A stretch of DNA of 64,000 nt. Origin: Acidimicrobiia bacterium (lineage in GTDB: Bacteria > Actinomycetota > Acidimicrobiia > Spongiisociales > SHLN01). The translations under genes were made by a program, and so were the position numbers. The first letter of the stretch is position 1. The number at the start of each line of letters is the position of its first letter. The notes under the pieces were generated by a model. It did not search any database, was not told the origin of the DNA, and saw only the letters and a program-made list of their open reading frames with translations. The stretch lies in NCBI GenBank assembly GCA_041619515.1, contig JBFKDW010000003.1, forward strand, positions 18,828 through 82,827, read 5' to 3'. Below are positions 28,739-36,264 of the stretch, piece after piece.

Positions 28739-28807
28739 GACCCCTATTGAAGGGGCGGGAGGGCGCAACGGCCTGCAACGTCGCCGACGGTTTCGGGGTT
28801 CTACCCG

Positions 28808-29362
28808 GTGATGACCCTCGATACAGTCGATCTCGTGAATCACCGTCTCGCCGCCGACCTAGATGAGGCCTTTCCGGATTTGATCCGGGAAACCCAACAC
28901 GGCATCTACTCGGGAATCCGTCGACTGGTGCCGTCGGCCGCCGACGCCGAGGACCTGGCGCAAGAGACGTTCATCCGCGCTTATCGGGCACTCTCGGCGT
29001 ATTCCACCGAACGGGTCCTCGAGCTCAAGCTGCGCAGCTGGCTGTGGACCATCGCACTCAACCTATGCCGCAATGCCGCCCGCACCCGCAGCCGCCGTCC
29101 CCGCACGGTGGTGCTCGACCGTGATGCGGTAGCACCAGGGTCGGGCCCGGAGGCTGAGGCATTGGCGGCAGACGAGAACGCCCGCTGGGCAGAGATCCTC
29201 GGCAGGCTTCCCGCCGCTCAGCACCACGCGGTCGTGCTGCGCCATGTGGTCGGGCTCACGTACTCGGAGATCTCCGCCGTCACCGGCCGCCCGGAAGGGA
29301 CGGTGAAGGCCGACGTGCATCGCGGCATCGCCAAACTCCAGGAGGCATCCCATGACCGTTGA
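28808..29362 (+). CDS. ECF-type RNA polymerase sigma-70 family factor
   Basis: Region 2 AEDLAQETFIRAYRAL..WLWTIALNLCRN; region 4 LTYSEISAVTGRPEGTVKADVHRGIAKL. Stop overlaps the next gene by 11 nt. Confidence 0.85.
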   Translation: MMTLDTVDLVNHRLAADLDEAFPDLIRETQHGIYSGIRRLVPSAADAEDLAQETFIRAYRALSAYSTERVLELKLRSWLWTIALNLCRNAARTRSRRPRTVVLDRDAVAPGSGPEAEALAADENARWAEILGRLPAAQHHAVVLRHVVGLTYSEISAVTGRPEGTVKADVHRGIAKLQEASHDR

Positions 29363-30116
29363 AGACAACCTGGCCGGGCTTGCCACCGAAGCCCCTCCGG
29401 CGCTGCTGCCACAGGTGTTGCTCGAGACCGGCTTGGCCGACGGCTACGTCAGCCACCCGGGCCCCACCGGAAACATGTTCGTAGCGTTCAACTCGCGCGG
29501 CATCTCCTCCATCTTCCTCGGCGACGACCCCTCTGATCTCGATGCCCGGTTCGAGGCCCAATTCGGCCGGCCGGCGTTTCCCGTCACCGGCCTGCCCTCA
29601 CGACTTGAACGGTCGCTGGATAGGAGCCTCCGCACCCGTCGCCTGGGAAACCTGCCGATCGACTGGACGGGCATGAGCCAGTTCCAGCAAGAGGTGCTGC
29701 GCAAGACCGCTGAGATCTTGCCGGGAGAAGTCCGCCCGTACTCATGGGTCGCGAAGGAGATCGGCAATCCTCGAGCCGTCCGGGCGGTCGGGACCGCCCT
29801 GGCGCGCAACCCGGTCCCGATCGTCGTTCCGTGCCACCGGGTCGTCCGTAACGACGGGCATCTCGGCAATTACTACTACGGGACGGAGGTGAAGCGGACC
29901 GTCCTCGAGGCAGAAGGCATGGACGTCGACACCCTGGAGATGCTCGCAGGTCGCGGAGTGCGACTCACCGGCAGCGACACCACGAATATCTTCTGCCACC
30001 CCACTTGCCGTGACGCCCGTCGGACGACGGCTCGCCATCGAGTTGAGTTCCGCAGCGAAACGGAGGCACGCGCCGCCGGGTATCGGCCGTGCCTGCACTG
30101 CCGACCGGCTGCGTGA
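29352..30116 (+). CDS. methylated-DNA-[protein]-cysteine S-methyltransferase (Ogt/MGMT) fused to a C-terminal Ada-type zinc methyl-acceptor domain; no HTH
   Basis: MGMT DNA-binding domain with active-site PCHRV (IVVPCHRVVRNDGHLGNYYYG). C-terminal FCHPTCRDARR...EARAAGYRPCLHCRP matches the Ada N-terminal Zn(Cys)4 domain (E. coli FCRPSCRA...ALAAGFRPCKRCQP). Translationally overlaps the ECF sigma gene. Confidence 0.8.
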   Translation: MTVEDNLAGLATEAPPALLPQVLLETGLADGYVSHPGPTGNMFVAFNSRGISSIFLGDDPSDLDARFEAQFGRPAFPVTGLPSRLERSLDRSLRTRRLGNLPIDWTGMSQFQQEVLRKTAEILPGEVRPYSWVAKEIGNPRAVRAVGTALARNPVPIVVPCHRVVRNDGHLGNYYYGTEVKRTVLEAEGMDVDTLEMLAGRGVRLTGSDTTNIFCHPTCRDARRTTARHRVEFRSETEARAAGYRPCLHCRPAA

Positions 30117-31954: not shown

Positions 31955-32956
31955 ATGGCCTCCGAGACGCACCTCGATATCGAGGGCGGGCCGTTCCGGA
32001 TTTCCAGCCCGGAGAAGATCATGTTCCCGGAGCAAGGCTGGACCAAGCTCGACGTCGCCCGCCATTTCCTCACCACCGGCGAAGGTGCGTTGCGGGGAGT
32101 GTTCGGCCGGCCGACCATGCTCAAGCGCTGGCCGAACGGAGCGGGAGGCGAGCCCTTCTACAACAAGCGGGCCAAGCCCGGGGATGTGATGGAGACCGTC
32201 GAGATTCGGTTTCCGTCGCAGCGGCCCGGCCTCATGCGGGTTCCCCGCACCGTCACCGACATCATGCGGATGGCGCAGCTGAATTGCCTCGATCTGAACC
32301 CGTGGAACGCCCGGGCCGAAGACATCGATCACCCCGACGAGATGCGCATCGACCTCGATCCCACCCCGGGCGTCCCGTTCGCCGACGTGCGCACCGTCGC
32401 CGCCTGGTGCCGGGAGTTCCTGACGGGCCATGGTCTCACCCCCTGGCCGAAGACGTCCGGCTCTCGCGGGATCCATGTGTACGTTCGGCTCGAGCCGGAG
32501 TGGGATTACTTCCAGGTGCGACGGTGCGTGCTGGCGGTCGCCCGGGAGGCACAAGCCGCCCTCGATGGGCTCGCCACTACCGCCTGGTGGAAGGAAGAAC
32601 GGGTCGGGGTGTTCATCGACTACAACCAGAACGCCCGCGACAAGACCATCGCCTCGGCGTACTCGGTGCGTCCCTCCGGTTTCGTGTCGGCGCCGTTTCG
32701 CTGGGACGAGCTGGACGACATAGAGATCGAAGCGTTTCCCATGGCCGGCTTCGAGCGGCGTTGGAACGACCTCGGCGACCTGACCGAGGGGATCGACGAG
32801 AGCGCCGGTCGGCTGGAGAGCCTGCTCGAGCTGGTGGCGGCACACGAGGACGCAGGCATGGGTGACGCCCCGTGGCCGCCCCACTACCCGAAACAGCCGG
32901 GCGAGCCACCCCGGGTGCAGCCATCGCGGCAACGCCGGCCCGACGACGAGTACTAG
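31955..32956 (+). CDS. NHEJ DNA polymerase/primase domain protein (LigD Pol domain, stand-alone)
   Basis: Archaeo-eukaryotic primase fold motifs: FDLDP-like MRIDLDPTPG, KTSGSRGIHVYVRL (SGxRG, HVY). ATG at 31955, 2 nt after the rhomboid stop. Confidence 0.85.
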   Translation: MASETHLDIEGGPFRISSPEKIMFPEQGWTKLDVARHFLTTGEGALRGVFGRPTMLKRWPNGAGGEPFYNKRAKPGDVMETVEIRFPSQRPGLMRVPRTVTDIMRMAQLNCLDLNPWNARAEDIDHPDEMRIDLDPTPGVPFADVRTVAAWCREFLTGHGLTPWPKTSGSRGIHVYVRLEPEWDYFQVRRCVLAVAREAQAALDGLATTAWWKEERVGVFIDYNQNARDKTIASAYSVRPSGFVSAPFRWDELDDIEIEAFPMAGFERRWNDLGDLTEGIDESAGRLESLLELVAAHEDAGMGDAPWPPHYPKQPGEPPRVQPSRQRRPDDEY

Positions 32957-32963
32957 GGCCGGG

Positions 32964-33989
32964 CTAGGACGCAACTACATCGGCAAAACCCGGTCCTCGC
33001 GGGCGCTCGAGCTGGTCCATGGTGCAGGCGTCTGGATCTTTGTCGGGACGCCACCGCTCCAGGCGGGTGGCGTGGCGGAACCGGTTCTCGGTGAGCTGGT
33101 CATAGCTCACCTGCACGACCACGCCCGGCTGCACCGGCGTCCAGGACAGGTCCTTGCCGGCCGACCAGCGGCTCTCTCCCCCCGGCATCCGTGCCTCGAG
33201 CCCAAAGGACTCGCCGGACTTGAGCTGCTCGAACTGCTCGAGCAACGCCGTACGGTCGTGATCGGAGAACCCGGAGCAATGCCCGATGAAATGCAACTCG
33301 CCCTGATCGTTGTACAGGCCGAGCAGCAGGGAGCCGATCTTCCCGCCATCCTTGTGCTCGCGGTAGCCGCCGACCACACAGTCGACCGAGCGACGATGCT
33401 TCCACTTGATCATCTCGCGCTTGCCCTCGACATACGGCGTGGCGGCGCCCTTACAGACGATGCCGTCACACCCGGCGGCCTCGAACTCGTCGAACCACCT
33501 CCTGGCGACATCCAGGTCGTCAGTCGAAGGGGTCAAGTGCCACTGGTCGCCCAGCGATCCGAACAGCTTTTCGAGATGCCGGCGTCGCTCCGTGAAGGGC
33601 TCTGCCCGGAGGTCTTTGCCCTCGATCGCGAGGAGGTCGAAGCCGACCAGGCTGGCCGGGATCTCCTCGGCGAGGAGCATGATTCGGCTCTCGGCCGGGT
33701 GGATGCGCAGTTGCAGGGAATCGAAGCTGGTTCTGTCGTCGATCACGACCAGGATCTCACCATCGACGACGGTGCCGCCCGGGAGCTGCCGCAGGGCCGG
33801 TTCGAGCTCCGGAAAGTACCGCAGCAGCGGCTTCTGGTTGCGGCTGTCGAGCCGAATATCGTCGCTCCAGGACACGGCCCGGAAACCATCCCATTTGGGC
33901 TCATACCGCCACCCGGGCGGATCCGGCGGGGTCTCCTTCACCCGCGCCTCCATCGTGGCGATCGGCGGAGAGAACGGCCAGCTCGTCAT
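32964..33989 (-). CDS. ATP-dependent DNA ligase (LigD ligase domain / LigC-like)
   Basis: Adenylation motif I YEPKWDGFR (KxDG); motifs III-V (DGEILV, LLGLYND, DGIVCKG); OB-fold C-terminus. Convergent with the Pol-domain gene, with 7 bp between the stops. Confidence 0.85.
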   Translation of the reverse strand: MTSWPFSPPIATMEARVKETPPDPPGWRYEPKWDGFRAVSWSDDIRLDSRNQKPLLRYFPELEPALRQLPGGTVVDGEILVVIDDRTSFDSLQLRIHPAESRIMLLAEEIPASLVGFDLLAIEGKDLRAEPFTERRRHLEKLFGSLGDQWHLTPSTDDLDVARRWFDEFEAAGCDGIVCKGAATPYVEGKREMIKWKHRRSVDCVVGGYREHKDGGKIGSLLLGLYNDQGELHFIGHCSGFSDHDRTALLEQFEQLKSGESFGLEARMPGGESRWSAGKDLSWTPVQPGVVVQVSYDQLTENRFRHATRLERWRPDKDPDACTMDQLERPRGPGFADVVAS

Positions 33990-34076
33990 GGGCGAACCCT
34001 ACCCGGGTGTTGCCACACGACTCTCCGCACCGCCACCACCGGAATATCTGAGCGCCGAGCCGGTTGGAGTTCGGAC

Positions 34077-34340
34077 ATGGCGCATCCCGAGGTCACCATC
34101 TACTCCACCGCGTGGTGCGGCTGGTGCGAGCGCGCCAAATCCCTGCTTCGCTCCAAGGGCGTCGTCGAGTGGAACGAGATCGATGTGGGAGCGCTCGCCG
34201 GCGGCCGCAGCGAGCTGCGGGAGCTCACCGGTGGAAGCACCGTCCCCCAGATCTATATCGGTGACCGTCATATCGGCGGATTCGACGATTTGGCGGCGCT
34301 CGACCGGGCCGGCCGCCTCGATTCTCTGCTGGAAGGATGA
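34077..34340 (+). CDS. glutaredoxin-like protein (CGWC active site; mycoredoxin/GrxC-like)
   Basis: VTIYSTAWCGWCERAK thioredoxin-fold active site; TVPQIYIGDRHIGGFDDL glutaredoxin GSH-binding motif. Only the last 87 codons of track ORF 32862..34340 are credible. Confidence 0.8.
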   Translation: MAHPEVTIYSTAWCGWCERAKSLLRSKGVVEWNEIDVGALAGGRSELRELTGGSTVPQIYIGDRHIGGFDDLAALDRAGRLDSLLEG

Positions 34341-34419
34341 CGGTCGGGGTCGGCCCGACGCGAAAGCGCCCGTCGGCCTGCTGCGGAGCTCCCGCCTGGC
34401 CATCGACGAGAATGTGGTG

Positions 34420-34830
34420 ATGCGTTACGAGGTCATCGACCATACCGCCGACACGGGCATCGTCGCCTACGGCGTGACACCGCACGAGCTGTTCGAAAAC
34501 GCCGGGTGGGGCATGTTCGACCTCATGTTCGACCTCAGCGGGCTCGACCCGATGCGAGACGTGCCCGTCATCGCCGGCGGCGATAGCCTCGATGAGCTGC
34601 TGTTCAACTGGCTCTCGGAGCTGCTCTACCATGCCGACTCGCTCGGGCTGGCCCTCTGCTACTTCACGGTCGACCGGCTCGAGGAGGGGGGGATCCAGGG
34701 ATCGGCGGGCGGAGTCCCCGTCGCCGGCCTCGAGTTGCGAGGACCTCCCATCAAGGCCGTTACCTACCACGACCTGGCCATCGTGGAAAACCCGGACACG
34801 TGGTGGGCGCGAGTGTTCTTCGACGTCTGA
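34420..34830 (+). CDS. archease (RtcB activator)
   Basis: MRYEVIDHTADTGIVAYG matches the archease N-terminal HTAD(I/T)G motif; 136 aa; immediately upstream of rtcB. Confidence 0.8.
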   Translation: MRYEVIDHTADTGIVAYGVTPHELFENAGWGMFDLMFDLSGLDPMRDVPVIAGGDSLDELLFNWLSELLYHADSLGLALCYFTVDRLEEGGIQGSAGGVPVAGLELRGPPIKAVTYHDLAIVENPDTWWARVFFDV

Positions 34831-34842
34831 CAGACTGGGGGT

Positions 34843-36264
34843 ATGAAATGGCGCCGAACCGGCAGTGACGTGTGGGAGGTCGACCCGCTCGGCGCCATGC
34901 TGGTGCCCGGCCGCGTGTACGCCTCCCCCGGCCTGTTCGAGCAGGCCGAATCGAACCGGGCCCTCGGTCAGGTCATGAATGTCGCCCATCTACCCGGCAT
35001 CGTCGAGGCCTCCATCGCAATGCCAGACATTCATTGGGGGTACGGCTTTCCGATCGGGGGTGTGGCCGCCACCGACATTTCGGCCGGCGGGGTCATTTCT
35101 CCCGGCGGCGTCGGGTTCGATATCTGCTGTGGAGTCCGCCTCCTCAGCAGCGGGTACACCCGGGCCGATTGGGTGGCGCGCGGGGAACGAGTGATGAACG
35201 AGTTGAGCCGCCGCATCCCGCGCGGGCTCGGGGCAGGATCCGTCGCCGGAGGCGACCTCATGTCCCAGGTGTTGGAAACCGGGGCCGCGGCCGTGCTGGG
35301 CGCAGGCTACGGGACGCCACGCGATCTCGACCGGTGCGAGGAGCGGGGGACCTCGCCCGGAGCCGACCCGGGCGCCGTCTCCGAGCGGGCCCGGAAGCGG
35401 GGACGCAGCCAGCTCGGCTCGCTGGGGGCCGGGAATCACTTCCTCGAGGTCCAGCTCGTCGAGCGCGTCTTCGACGAGGCTGCCTCCGTCTTCGGGTTGG
35501 AGGAAGGCATGGTGGCAGTCATGATCCACTGCGGCAGTCGCGGTCTCGGCCATCAGACATGCACCGACCAGCTGCAGGCGATGGGCCCCGCCATGGCACG
35601 GTACGGCATCTCGGTGCCGGATCGCCAGCTGGCGTGCGTGCCGGTCGATTCTCCCGAAGGGCAGCGCTACCTCGGCGCGATGGCAGCAGCCGCCAACTTC
35701 GCCTGGGCAAATCGGCACGTACTCGCCCACGAGGCGCGGGCCGCCTTCGCAGCCGGATTCGACACGGTGCCGCAAGACACGCGAATGGATCTGGTGTTCG
35801 ACGTGGCACACAACCTCGCAAAGATCGAAACCCATCAGGTAGGTGAGCACAGCCGGTCGTTGTGCGTTCACCGCAAGGGCGCCACCCGGGCCTTCGGGCC
35901 GGGTCACCCTGAGCTGGCGCCCGACTTGCTCCCGGTGGGCCAGCCGGTCCTCGTGCCCGGCTCCATGGGCACCGCCTCGTGGGTATTGAAGGGGATGGCG
36001 GAGAATCCGGCCTTCGGATCGGCCGCCCACGGGGCGGGAAGAGTCATGAGCCGCCGACAGGCGAAAAAGAAGGAATCGGGGGCGGCGGTACGGGATGCGC
36101 TCGAGTCCGCCGGTATCGCGGTTCGACCCGGGTCGGTTGCGCTGCTATCCGAAGAAGCTCCGTACGCCTACAAGGACGTTGACGAGGTCATCGAGGTGTG
36201 CGCCCGCACTACGCTGGCGGAAAAGGTGGCCCGCATGGTCCCCCTCGGGGTGGTCAAGGGGTAG
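34843..36264 (+). CDS. rtcB: RNA-splicing ligase RtcB
   Basis: RtcB motifs: [43 protein letters not shown]; His for guanylylation ([11 protein letters not shown]). 473 aa. Confidence 0.9.

Follow-up and report, generated by a model that had tools for sequence, protein, structure and literature searches.

An association between an ECF sigma factor and an alkyltransferase gene has been catalogued before: group ECF122 (Casas-Pastor et al. 2021, summarised in PMC8999054) is described as an actinobacterial group with a conserved 6-O-methylguanine DNA methyltransferase neighbour and no anti-sigma, its mechanism being listed as unknown and its model protein being WP_057211282.1 of Cellulomonas sp. 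Root930. The group is not mentioned in the main text or the preprint of the ECF classification paper, and our literature searches found no experimental work on a sigma-alkyltransferase system. Among the proteins known to react with methylated DNA, E. coli Ada is switched on by methylation of a Zn-site cysteine (PMC10957082), and in Caulobacter Cada2 methylation of the MGMT-domain cysteine is the regulatory switch (Kamat et al. 2024, PMC10957082). Caulobacter Cada1, which combines a Zn domain with an MGMT domain and has no HTH, is a non-regulatory repair protein (PMC10957082). It is an open question how methylation damage is sensed in bacteria that follow neither the Ada nor the Cada2 paradigm (PMC10957082), and the control of ECF sigmas without a recognisable anti-sigma is an acknowledged gap (PMC8999054); the two-gene module described here bears on both.

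The locus lies in a 64-kb stretch of DNA, the window. The window and the family of loci to which it belongs share with ECF122, as that group is summarised, a PF01035 gene beside the sigma gene and no recognisable anti-sigma domain nearby. By gene neighbourhood and group description the sigma-MGMT association matches ECF122 and so is not new. The group summary in PMC8999054, as far as it extends, makes no mention of an Ada-type Zn tail, an N-terminal extension or a promoter motif, nor of spread into Chloroflexota, Dormibacterota and Acidobacteriota, all of which were observed here.

Two adjacent ORFs on the same strand make up the locus, one for a sigma factor and one for an MGMT with a C-terminal Ada-type Zn domain (MGMT-AdaZn; Table 1). 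An in-frame GTG at 28808 offers an alternative sigma start 5' of the ATG; the ATG is the start chosen by the gene callers and by a 99%-identical homolog (P0121), the gene calls of two other loci (L081 and L082) are concordant with it, and sigma homologs are 181-183 aa long. Pfam finds Sigma70_r2 (PF04542, E 4e-15) and Sigma70_r4_2 (PF08281, E 2.5e-12) and no other domain in the product, which scores 86.8 bits with TIGR02937 (sigma70-ECF) against a cutoff of 42.9; in the profile search, no specific equivalog or subfamily model rose above its own cutoff. We predict that the protein is a member of the ECF (group 4) sigma-70 family with regions sigma2 and sigma4 only. As the original prediction had it, the sigma gene ends 11 nt inside the next ORF, the shared stretch being ATGACCGTTGA, which in the sigma frame reads cat gac cgt tga.

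Table 1. Features of the sigma/MGMT-AdaZn locus, in positions of the window.
Feature	Position	Strand	Extent or detail	Basis
Putative ECF-type promoter	28774..28801	+	-35 TGCAAC 28774-28779, 16-nt spacer, -10 GGGTTC 28796-28801	Motif conservation
Predicted ECF (group 4) sigma gene	28811..29362	+	183 aa from ATG	Pfam Sigma70_r2 and Sigma70_r4_2, TIGR02937 above cutoff, homolog lengths, gene calls
Sigma/MGMT-AdaZn overlap	29352..29362	+	11 nt; sigma stop codon over MGMT-AdaZn start; translational coupling	Sequence
Gene for MGMT with C-terminal Ada-Zn domain	29352..30116	+	254 aa	Pfam, family alignment, AlphaFold, Foldseek
N-terminal extension	29352..29447	+	aa 1-32; two short helices	AlphaFold model, extension HMM
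Predicted O6-alkylguanine-DNA alkyltransferase	29448..29918	+	aa 33-189, N- and C-terminal subdomains	Pfam, Foldseek 1SFE
PF01035 part of alkyltransferase	29679-29918	+	aa 110-189	
Cys161 codon	29832..29834	+	Predicted PCHR active-site methyl acceptor	[IV]PCHRV invariant, 80/80 loci
Ada-type Zn(Cys)4 domain	29964..30107	+	aa 205-252	PF02805, alignment to N-Ada structures, fold match
Cys215 codon	29994-29996	+	Equivalent of Ada Cys38	Alignment to Ada structures

The second ORF had been said to encode a complete MGMT (IVVPCHRVV) and, C-terminal to it, an Ada-type Zn(Cys)4 domain (FCHPTC...RPCLHCRP), and both motifs and both domains are indeed found in it. PF01035 matches with E 2e-29, TIGR00589 scores 98.7 bits against a cutoff of 46.4, and the best Foldseek match of the AlphaFold model (pLDDT 88.6, pTM 0.81) is the Ada-C/MGMT structure 1SFE (E 1.7e-13, 38% identity over 169 columns). 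As for the tail, PF02805 (Ada_Zn_binding) matches with E 7e-11; C215, C219, C247 and C250 pair with Ada C38, C42, C69 and C72 in an alignment to 1ADN, 1U8B and 1ZGW (E 1e-7), the four Zn-ligand cysteines being invariant across a family alignment with a mean column identity of 66%; and in Foldseek the tail of the model matches N-Ada (1WPK and 1U8B) with 40% identity over about 50 columns. In the model, the Zn domain is a beta-beta-alpha-beta-alpha core with a linker helix ahead of it, and because the PF02805 match spans only profile positions 18-64 of 65, the first (N-terminal) helix of N-Ada appears to be absent. Assignment of the tail to the NCBIfam 'sunset domain' was rejected (E 0.0018, 18.3 bits against a cutoff of 27), and a literature search on that name returned nothing relevant. 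The reversal of domain order relative to Ada is confirmed by the Pfam positions, and the equivalog model for E. coli Ada, NF011964, stays below its cutoff (121 bits against 345). The further claim that there is no AraC or other HTH holds only in its first half: a Pfam scan of the ORF gave no HTH_AraC match, and thus no sequence-specific HTH of that type, but the MGMT domain (Pfam DNA_binding_1) has a non-specific DNA-binding helix-turn-helix of its own, similar enough to sigma region 4 for MAFFT to align the two together. We conclude that the second protein is a predicted O6-alkylguanine-DNA alkyltransferase with all the catalytic hallmarks of the suicide enzyme, and that its tail is predicted to keep a Zn(Cys)4 methyl-acceptor site of the Ada Cys38 type.

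The original prediction depended on the adjacency being more than sporadic, and this proved to be so. In a survey of the MGMT-then-Zn architecture, an ECF sigma gene lies immediately upstream in 50 of the 52 assessable genomes, and three loci with tail-less MGMTs likewise have a sigma gene directly upstream on the same strand. Carriers belong to Acidimicrobiia, Chloroflexota, Dormibacterota, Acidobacteriota, Eremiobacterota, Streptosporangiales and Streptomyces, and include the culturable Streptosporangium carneum, Actinomadura, Nonomuraea and Streptomyces himastatinicus. At least six lineages of phylum or order rank thus keep the pair as a unit, with varying flanks. A further nine contexts were retrieved by protein identity, six starting from the MGMT and three, as the reverse check, from sigma homologs chosen blind; the pair is present in every one of them, among differing neighbours. 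At the junction, the two genes share 4 nt in 31 loci and have another short overlap or gap in the remainder; in L092, L093 and L094 the overlap is 11, 4 and 4 nt, respectively. No anti-sigma domain was found among the window neighbours (Pfam, E <= 0.01) or, from precomputed Pfam annotation, among the neighbours in L081-L094, and the varied flanks of the family loci examined hold no other conserved partner gene. Conservation of neighbours was judged from called genes and Pfam annotation, six-frame ORF clustering being swamped by shadow ORFs at 66% GC. A 388-aa membrane protein, a rhomboid and a DUF427 protein encoded downstream were rejected as parts of the module because their conservation does not go beyond the two closest relatives. 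The pairing of sigma and MGMT-AdaZn is thus real and conserved.

An extension of about 30 aa, with the motif L..L...AP......VL...G.aDgY, is found only in sigma-linked MGMTs, and in alignment comparison it is not present in plain Ogt proteins. In the AlphaFold model it forms helices at residues 3-13 and 19-26 with a lower pLDDT of about 67. An HMM of the extension matches nearly all sigma-linked loci outside its training set, two tail-less ones (L049 and L052) included, and has no match in any of the 25 loci L056-L080. Its presence follows sigma linkage rather than the Zn tail, and it is a candidate sigma-contact element. Because tail-less MGMTs (L049, L052 and L054) are still sigma-coupled, the Zn tail is accessory and not essential to the linkage.

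The promoter motif, TGCAAC-N16-G(G/T)GTTC, is conserved across the family and clade-specific. A strict regular expression places it at the same position in 35 of 48 upstream regions, with more recognised by eye; the family loci hold 41 matches in 482 kb, as compared to about 0.6 in shuffles, nearly all of them 8-11 nt upstream of the sigma start; and it recurs in 9 of 10 distinct loci fetched later, the exception (L091) having a run of N at that position. In the window, the -10 element ends 9 nt before the sigma ATG, so the mRNA would be leaderless or nearly so, and the motif occurs as a single perfect copy, with no further copies found in the 64 kb even under a relaxed pattern. A conserved ECF-type promoter directly ahead of the sigma gene implies autoregulation, and from this co-occurrence we infer that the promoter is recognised by its own sigma. 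An Ada-box-like operator was rejected, since the information profile around the -35 element, computed over -40 to +50, revealed nothing conserved upstream of -35; a GTAC[CG]GT element at -14 to -18 is confined to a minority of loci and does not occur in the window. In most loci the operon's own promoter is the only copy of the motif, and in most genomes the output seems to extend hardly beyond the operon. One genome, that of Streptomyces himastatinicus, has three extra promoter copies, in front of genes beside the module that encode an MFS transporter, an AMP-binding enzyme and an SDR. In another Streptomyces, a SARP regulator adjoins the module.

In ECF operons, the +1, translationally coupled position is the usual site of anti-sigma genes. 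An autoregulated ECF sigma with no extension of its own and no anti-sigma neighbour needs a negative regulator, and MGMT-AdaZn is encoded at that position. We therefore infer a regulatory role of MGMT-AdaZn over the sigma, most likely as a damage-consumed anti-sigma. One could envision MGMT-AdaZn as a non-canonical anti-sigma that is soluble, is produced 1:1 with the sigma and grips it by means of the N-terminal extension. Damaged DNA as methyl donor (from O6-methylguanine to Cys161, from methylphosphotriesters to Cys215), or direct methylation, would irreversibly convert and consume the protein; alkylated MGMT is destabilised. The freed sigma would then transcribe its own operon, and fresh, unmethylated protein would repair the DNA and recapture the sigma once the damage had been cleared. 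That the locus is such a self-contained, autoregulated two-gene module for the alkylation response, with MGMT-AdaZn as its damage-consumed anti-sigma, is a tentative reading to which we give a little under an even chance. The original prediction, in which the sigma is controlled or partnered by the MGMT-Ada protein, gains from the near-universal adjacency, the lack of an anti-sigma nearby, the operon's own promoter and the extension; what does not stand is an essential place in the linkage for the Zn domain as methyl sensor, given the tail-less variants.

Alternatively, MGMT-AdaZn may be output only, that is, a bifunctional repair enzyme expressed by the sigma in the manner of Cada1, with the sigma controlled elsewhere by an unlinked anti-sigma, another transcription factor or proteolysis; this would make the locus an ordinary case. 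Because MGMT-AdaZn retains its full enzyme features, it could be no more than the regulated output: the catalytic residues are all intact, the fold is that of a standard MGMT plus N-Ada, Cada1 sets a precedent for a non-regulatory Zn-plus-MGMT protein without an HTH (PMC10957082), and ECF122 is listed, in the group summary, without an anti-sigma (PMC8999054). MGMT-AdaZn has no sequence match to known anti-sigma domains (class I ASD/zf-HC2, RskA and others; Pfam, E <= 0.01), nor does the model have a four-helix ASD fold N-terminally, only two short helices preceding the MGMT fold; this missing homology lowers the case for a known anti-sigma, not the case for a protein that acts like one. AlphaFold on a fused chain (P0241) gave no confident docking (pTM 0.58; extension helices at pLDDT 53-73), which is weak negative evidence because the block MSA was unpaired and there was no PAE. 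A concatenated-query search had returned two natural sigma-MGMT fusions. P0241 itself was rejected as a real fusion and is probably a frameshift artefact, since a Shine-Dalgarno sequence and TAATG sit just out of frame on a long-read contig; P0242, a singleton, is in-frame, has the MGMT N-terminal motif fused straight onto sigma region 4, and lends the sigma-MGMT link slight support. Against the output-only alternative, a linkage that is nearly absolute in both directions and keeps its stop/start overlap in distant phyla exceeds what co-regulation needs, a whole sigma for one enzyme gene would be unusual, and a dedicated N-terminal extension marks the sigma-linked MGMTs and is lacking in ordinary Ogt and Ada. 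Moreover, the sole conserved promoter is ECF-type and, if nothing held it in check, would run away, and the varied flanks offer no other conserved gene as partner. We consider this alternative rather unlikely.

Methylated Ada contacts region 4 of sigma70. By analogy, the methylated window protein, in which methylation at Cys215 would take away the negative charge of the Zn site or methylation at Cys161 would alter the conformation, could bind the sigma or its holoenzyme at the promoter and enable transcription by a sigma that is poorly active alone. Such a co-activator would likewise prevent runaway autoregulation; the Ada Cys38-equivalent site is conserved, and Ada and Cada2 are both methylation-activated positive regulators (PMC10957082). 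However, nothing upstream of -35 is conserved that could serve as an Ada-box-like operator, GTACCGT being restricted to a minority of loci and absent from the window, and MGMTs without the tail are still sigma-linked. ECF sigmas normally have no need of an activator, and 1:1 translational coupling is commoner in inhibitor pairs; a co-activator is thus quite improbable. SN2 agents can donate a methyl group directly to Ada Cys38, and the activated Zn-Cys4 and PCHR thiolates might sense small-molecule electrophiles or natural-product alkylators directly, in analogy to zinc-containing anti-sigmas such as RsrA, for a regulon of detoxification and efflux such as the S. himastatinicus promoters and the SARP regulator of another Streptomyces would suggest, but the Streptomyces pattern comes from one genome, in most loci the operon's own promoter is the only copy, and a full DNA-binding MGMT domain is conserved with all its DNA-repair residues, so that a signal other than DNA alkylation is highly improbable.

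Returning to the damage-consumed anti-sigma, its boldest form is that MGMT-AdaZn represents a new anti-sigma class, a suicide repair enzyme that would free a dedicated ECF sigma by methylating itself irreversibly at Cys161, Cys215 or both; this is possible, but we hold it at clearly less than an even chance. If it is true, the repair protein would, by being titrated, report how much damage is still unrepaired, and a third, sigma-based design of adaptive response would stand beside those of E. coli Ada and Caulobacter Cada2 in many Actinomycetota, Chloroflexota and related phyla. A repair enzyme that regulates its sigma would be a mechanistically new anti-sigma and an orthogonal alkylation-responsive switch for synthetic biology. 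The module is compact (two genes and one promoter) and widespread, and it offers one defined promoter, two cysteines as candidate acceptors, a candidate contact peptide of 30 aa and variants that naturally lack the tail.

Soluble partners whose genes directly follow that of an autoregulated ECF sigma, often with translational coupling, are familiar from the ZAS class (RsrA/ChrR) and from CnrY of class II. ZAS anti-sigmas sense through reactive Zn-bound cysteines, and CnrY binds its own sigma with only two short helices. The window protein differs from these in having no match to zf-HC2 or other anti-sigma domains. Its Zn site, unlike that of ZAS proteins, lies in a C-terminal Ada-type domain outside the proposed sigma-binding helices, and its proposed chemistry is irreversible S-methylation rather than disulfide formation. 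Cada2 is a classical transcription factor with its own B-box and RLHD DNA-binding domains, whereas the B-box (SPHFQR) and RLHD motifs are absent from the family alignment, and in the window protein the extension of about 30 aa leads directly into the MGMT N-subdomain. The Zn domain of Cada1 is N-terminal and that of the window protein C-terminal, and neither Cada1 nor Cada2 has the sigma linkage or the N-terminal extension that the window protein has. With E. coli Ada, the window protein shares both methyl-acceptor modules (the Cys38 equivalent and PCHR), and both operons are autoregulated, in the window presumably through the ECF-type promoter. Where Ada runs from the N-Ada Zn domain through an AraC HTH to the MGMT, the window protein has the reverse order without the AraC HTH and without the first helix of N-Ada, and its operon has no A/B-box operator. 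The module may thus be a sigma-based version of the classic Ada alkylation response, whose output would be a dedicated sigma rather than activation of the sigma70 holoenzyme.

The window carries an autonomous, translationally coupled two-gene unit behind an apparently autoregulatory ECF-type promoter, in which an ECF sigma gene is followed by the gene for an intact bifunctional suicide methyltransferase (MGMT-AdaZn, an MGMT domain with a C-terminal Ada-type Zn(Cys)4 domain) bearing an N-terminal peptide specific to sigma linkage. Both reading frames lie precisely where the original prediction had placed them, sharing 11 nt, ATGACCGTTGA. The sigma factor has Sigma70_r2 and Sigma70_r4_2 and no other domain; it clears the generic ECF model TIGR02937 and passes no specific sigma subfamily model. 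In the second protein, PF01035 (MGMT) matches aa 110–189 (E = 2e-29) and PF02805 (Ada Zn domain) aa 205–252 (E = 7e-11), the latter over profile positions 18–64 of 65 only, so that the first helix of N-Ada, the N-terminal Zn domain of E. coli Ada, is missing. Against the equivalog model for E. coli Ada the protein scores 121 bits, short of the cutoff of 345, and the domain search found no AraC HTH in it, in agreement with what had been read from the sequence; the companion claim, that the sigma is the operon's only DNA-binding element, holds for sequence-specific binding but not in general, as the MGMT domain has a non-specific DNA-binding helix-turn-helix.

AlphaFold, given an alignment of 18 family members, models MGMT-AdaZn with confidence (pLDDT 88.6, pTM 0.81). 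Over ~169 columns the model resembles MGMT structures, among them the MGMT part of E. coli Ada, Ada-C (1SFE, E = 1.7e-13, 38% identity), and its tail resembles methylated N-Ada (1WPK, 1U8B; 40% identity, ~50 columns). In a sequence alignment, the protein's C215, C219, C247 and C250 fall opposite C38, C42, C69 and C72 of N-Ada, which makes Cys215 the equivalent of the methylphosphotriester acceptor, and [IV]PCHRV and CxxxC...CxxC are kept in every family member. Judged by sequence, the MGMT-Zn proteins of this family look like real methyl acceptors rather than degenerate alkyltransferase-like proteins. The Zn tail (aa 208–246) also gives a sub-threshold NCBIfam match to the "sunset domain" NF051437 (E = 0.0018; 18.3 bits, cutoff 27), which may mean that the Ada Zn domain has relatives in a broader group of small Cys4 domains; a literature search on the term "sunset domain" turned up nothing relevant.

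Adjacency of the two genes overwhelmingly exceeds chance. One genome per GTDB species was scanned with the family alignment, and each of the best 80 loci was scored by comparing the window's sigma and MGMT proteins with six-frame ORFs. Among these 80, the MGMT→Zn order occurs in 55, three of them cut by a contig end, and an ECF sigma ORF lies directly upstream on the same strand in 50 of the 52 uncut loci (L044 and L056 are the exceptions); a sigma neighbour is absent in all 22 loci of the 80 with classical Ada (Zn-AraC-MGMT) or plain Ogt. Reciprocally, three sigma homologs (54–57% identity), picked solely for their long contigs, are each followed by a PF01035+PF02805 gene, with overlaps of 11, 4 and 4 nt, and the survey of co-occurrence that had been proposed thus came out decisively in favor. 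Stop and start codons overlap by 4 nt at the junction in 31 loci, the remainder having some other short overlap or a short gap; at three loci (L049, L052 and L054), the sigma-coupled MGMT is tail-less. The pair is found in Acidimicrobiia (relatives of the window at 78–80% identity), Chloroflexota/Limnocylindrales, Dormibacterota, Acidobacteriota, Eremiobacterota, Streptosporangiales (Actinomadura, Nonomuraea, Streptosporangium), and Streptomyces. Labelled an "uncultured Gammaproteobacteria" MAG, the closest genome locus, L001 (CAXMQV010000125.1), shares the window's flanking genes and is 80% identical in protein sequence; the other close relatives are all Acidimicrobiia, the DNA is 66% GC, and the contig is probably mis-binned or its label wrong.

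Called genes and Pfam matches in six diverse family members place the same pair in entirely different surroundings, with convergent genes directly after it in several and no anti-sigma domain among its neighbors. Of the flanking genes, those for the membrane protein and rhomboid (downstream) and for DUF427 (upstream) were rejected as module parts, being common only to the window and its two closest relatives; in distant loci the neighbors are unrelated genes. In the window, NHEJ and RNA-repair genes adjoin the alkylation-repair module in a nucleic-acid repair cluster directly downstream (31955–36264); the intervening rhomboid gene is syntenic in the closest relatives only. Several Acidimicrobiia-type loci have a SAM-dependent methyltransferase (Methyltransf_23/25/11) beside the module, and in two of these loci it is divergent from the sigma promoter; DNA glycosylases sometimes adjoin it (HhH-GPD in L088, UDG in L094). 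Dormibacterota-type loci (L091, L043, L045, L047) have a second ECF sigma gene, divergent from the pair and followed by two unannotated genes. In Streptomyces himastatinicus (L050), extra promoter copies precede genes flanking the module, near which lies a BBE/FAD oxidase, and L065, from another Streptomyces, has a SARP regulator directly upstream of the sigma and an IS transposase nearby; both loci hint at a tie to secondary metabolism or self-resistance.

Features of the module and its surroundings, in window positions unless a locus is named
Feature	Position	Strand	Remarks
Inverted repeat CCCCT-ATTGA-AGGGG	28741–28755		just past DUF427 stop, 18 nt before ECF -35
ECF-type promoter	28774–28801		sole perfect copy in window
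ECF sigma ORF	28808 (GTG) or 28811 (ATG) to 29362		ATG preferred by gene callers and 99%-identical homolog
MGMT-AdaZn ORF	29352–30116		254 aa
LigD primase-polymerase	31955–32956	+	Pfam
ATP-dependent DNA ligase	32964–33989	-	Pfam
Glutaredoxin	34077–34340	+	Pfam
Archease	C-terminal aa 341–474 of ORF 33406–34830		Pfam
RtcB RNA ligase	34843–36264	+	Pfam
SAM-dependent methyltransferase	L086 3730–4377	-	
SAM-dependent methyltransferase	L088 3578–4225	-	
SAM-dependent methyltransferase	L090 6438–6995	-	
Second ECF sigma gene	L091 2545–3108	-	
Extra promoter copy	L050 2227–2254	-	
Extra promoter copy	L050 6359–6386	+	
Extra promoter copy	L050 7729–7756	+	
SARP regulator	L065 3315–4202		

Most loci share TGCAAC(C)-N15/16-GG(T/G)GTTCT upstream of the sigma start, its -10 element ending 8–11 nt before the start codon. 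The strict pattern has 41 matches in 482 kb of family loci vs ~0.6 in shuffles, nearly all at the sigma-start position, and the motif recurs in nine of ten distinct additional loci, the exception (L091) having an N-run there; no second copy was found in the window, even with a relaxed pattern. The motif reads as an ECF-type -35/-10 pair co-occurring with this sigma clade across phyla, for which positive autoregulation with a leaderless or near-leaderless transcript would be the natural reading. Nothing 5′ of the -35 is conserved across family loci, which leaves no Ada-box-like operator there. In 6 of 54 strict promoters (L007, L015, L024, L028, L049, L051; by eye also L009, L012, L014, L027), GTAC[CG]GT precedes the ECF -35 at a fixed distance of 14–18 nt, vs 0.003 expected per 60 nt. 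The window lacks this element, which could serve as the TAnnnT -10 of a housekeeping promoter for basal expression, or as an operator. The window's inverted repeat, after which a half-copy CGCAAC lies 4 nt upstream of TGCAAC, may be a weak terminator insulating the module from the upstream gene; a consensus scan called no terminator there.

Sigma-linked MGMTs have ~30 additional N-terminal residues (L..L...AP......VL...G.aDgY), modelled as two short helices at lower confidence. An HMM of this extension picks up the start of the MGMT at almost every sigma-linked locus outside its training set, including tail-less L049 and L052, and has no match in the 25 loci L056–L080, home of the classical Ada and plain Ogt genes; the extension thus tracks sigma linkage, whereas the Zn tail does not. 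A concatenated sigma+MGMT query, built so that fusion proteins rank top, yielded two proteins. Compared with its close relative L043, P0242 (410 aa) has lost ~31 nt in frame, so that region 4 of the sigma runs straight into the N-terminal motif of the MGMT; this single observation looks genuine. P0241 (463 aa), from a long-read contig, was rejected as a true fusion and is most likely a frameshift error, given the Shine-Dalgarno sequence GAAGGAGG and TAATG stop/start overlap one frame off at its junction. Its AlphaFold model used a block alignment with correct sigma and MGMT blocks, one that matched region 4 of the sigma to the HTH of the MGMT having been dropped; with this unpaired MSA and no PAE, the domains are well folded (mean pLDDT 80.7; pTM 0.58), and the extension helices (pLDDT 53–73) are not confidently docked.

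Our leading, if tentative, reading is that the methyltransferase is a negative regulator of the sigma that is consumed by methyl transfer. It would be produced 1:1 with the sigma and hold it via the N-terminal extension; methyl transfer would irreversibly consume it, and damage would thus free the sigma, so that more sigma and more methyltransferase would be made. An ECF sigma under autoregulation has to be held in check, and MGMT-AdaZn occupies the position directly after the sigma, the usual place of anti-sigma genes; the want of another conserved partner, the linkage-specific extension, and the precedent of Ada and Caulobacter Cada2 for methylation switches point the same way. Alternatively, one could envision MGMT-AdaZn as the output enzyme only, with sigma regulation located elsewhere, which we consider rather unlikely. 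That it is instead a co-activator switched on by methylation seems improbable, given that no operator was found upstream of the promoter and that tail-less variants exist. Direct sensing of small-molecule alkylators is hardly probable, as S. himastatinicus alone points there, with its three extra promoter copies before MFS transporter, AMP-binding enzyme and short-chain dehydrogenase (SDR) genes. The MGMT-Ada/sigma partnership of the original prediction is partly supported: it stands as co-occurrence, and its functional coupling is a proposal. The mechanism can now be approached through its promoter, its two cysteines, a peptide of 30 aa, and the natural variants.

The observation is confirmed, the association is already catalogued, and the mechanism is an attractive question. 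A 2022 review of non-canonical ECF sigma factors (PMC8999054, citing the 2021 reclassification) places ECF122 among the groups without a cognate anti-sigma, with "6-O-methylguanine DNA methyltransferases" as conserved neighbors, a model protein from Cellulomonas sp. Root930, and a mechanism listed as unknown; the genomic association is thus in the literature. We liken the window's module to ECF122 by description (MGMT neighbor, no anti-sigma); the Zn tail, extension and promoter go unmentioned in that review. Our literature search found no experimental study of a sigma/alkyltransferase system. Two characterised systems come closest. In Caulobacter, Cada2 is switched on by methylation of its MGMT-domain Cys, and Cada1 is a Zn-domain + MGMT repair protein without an HTH (PMC10957082); Cada1 and Cada2 involve no sigma factor. 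E. coli Ada shares both acceptor modules with MGMT-AdaZn, but in the opposite order and with an AraC HTH of its own.
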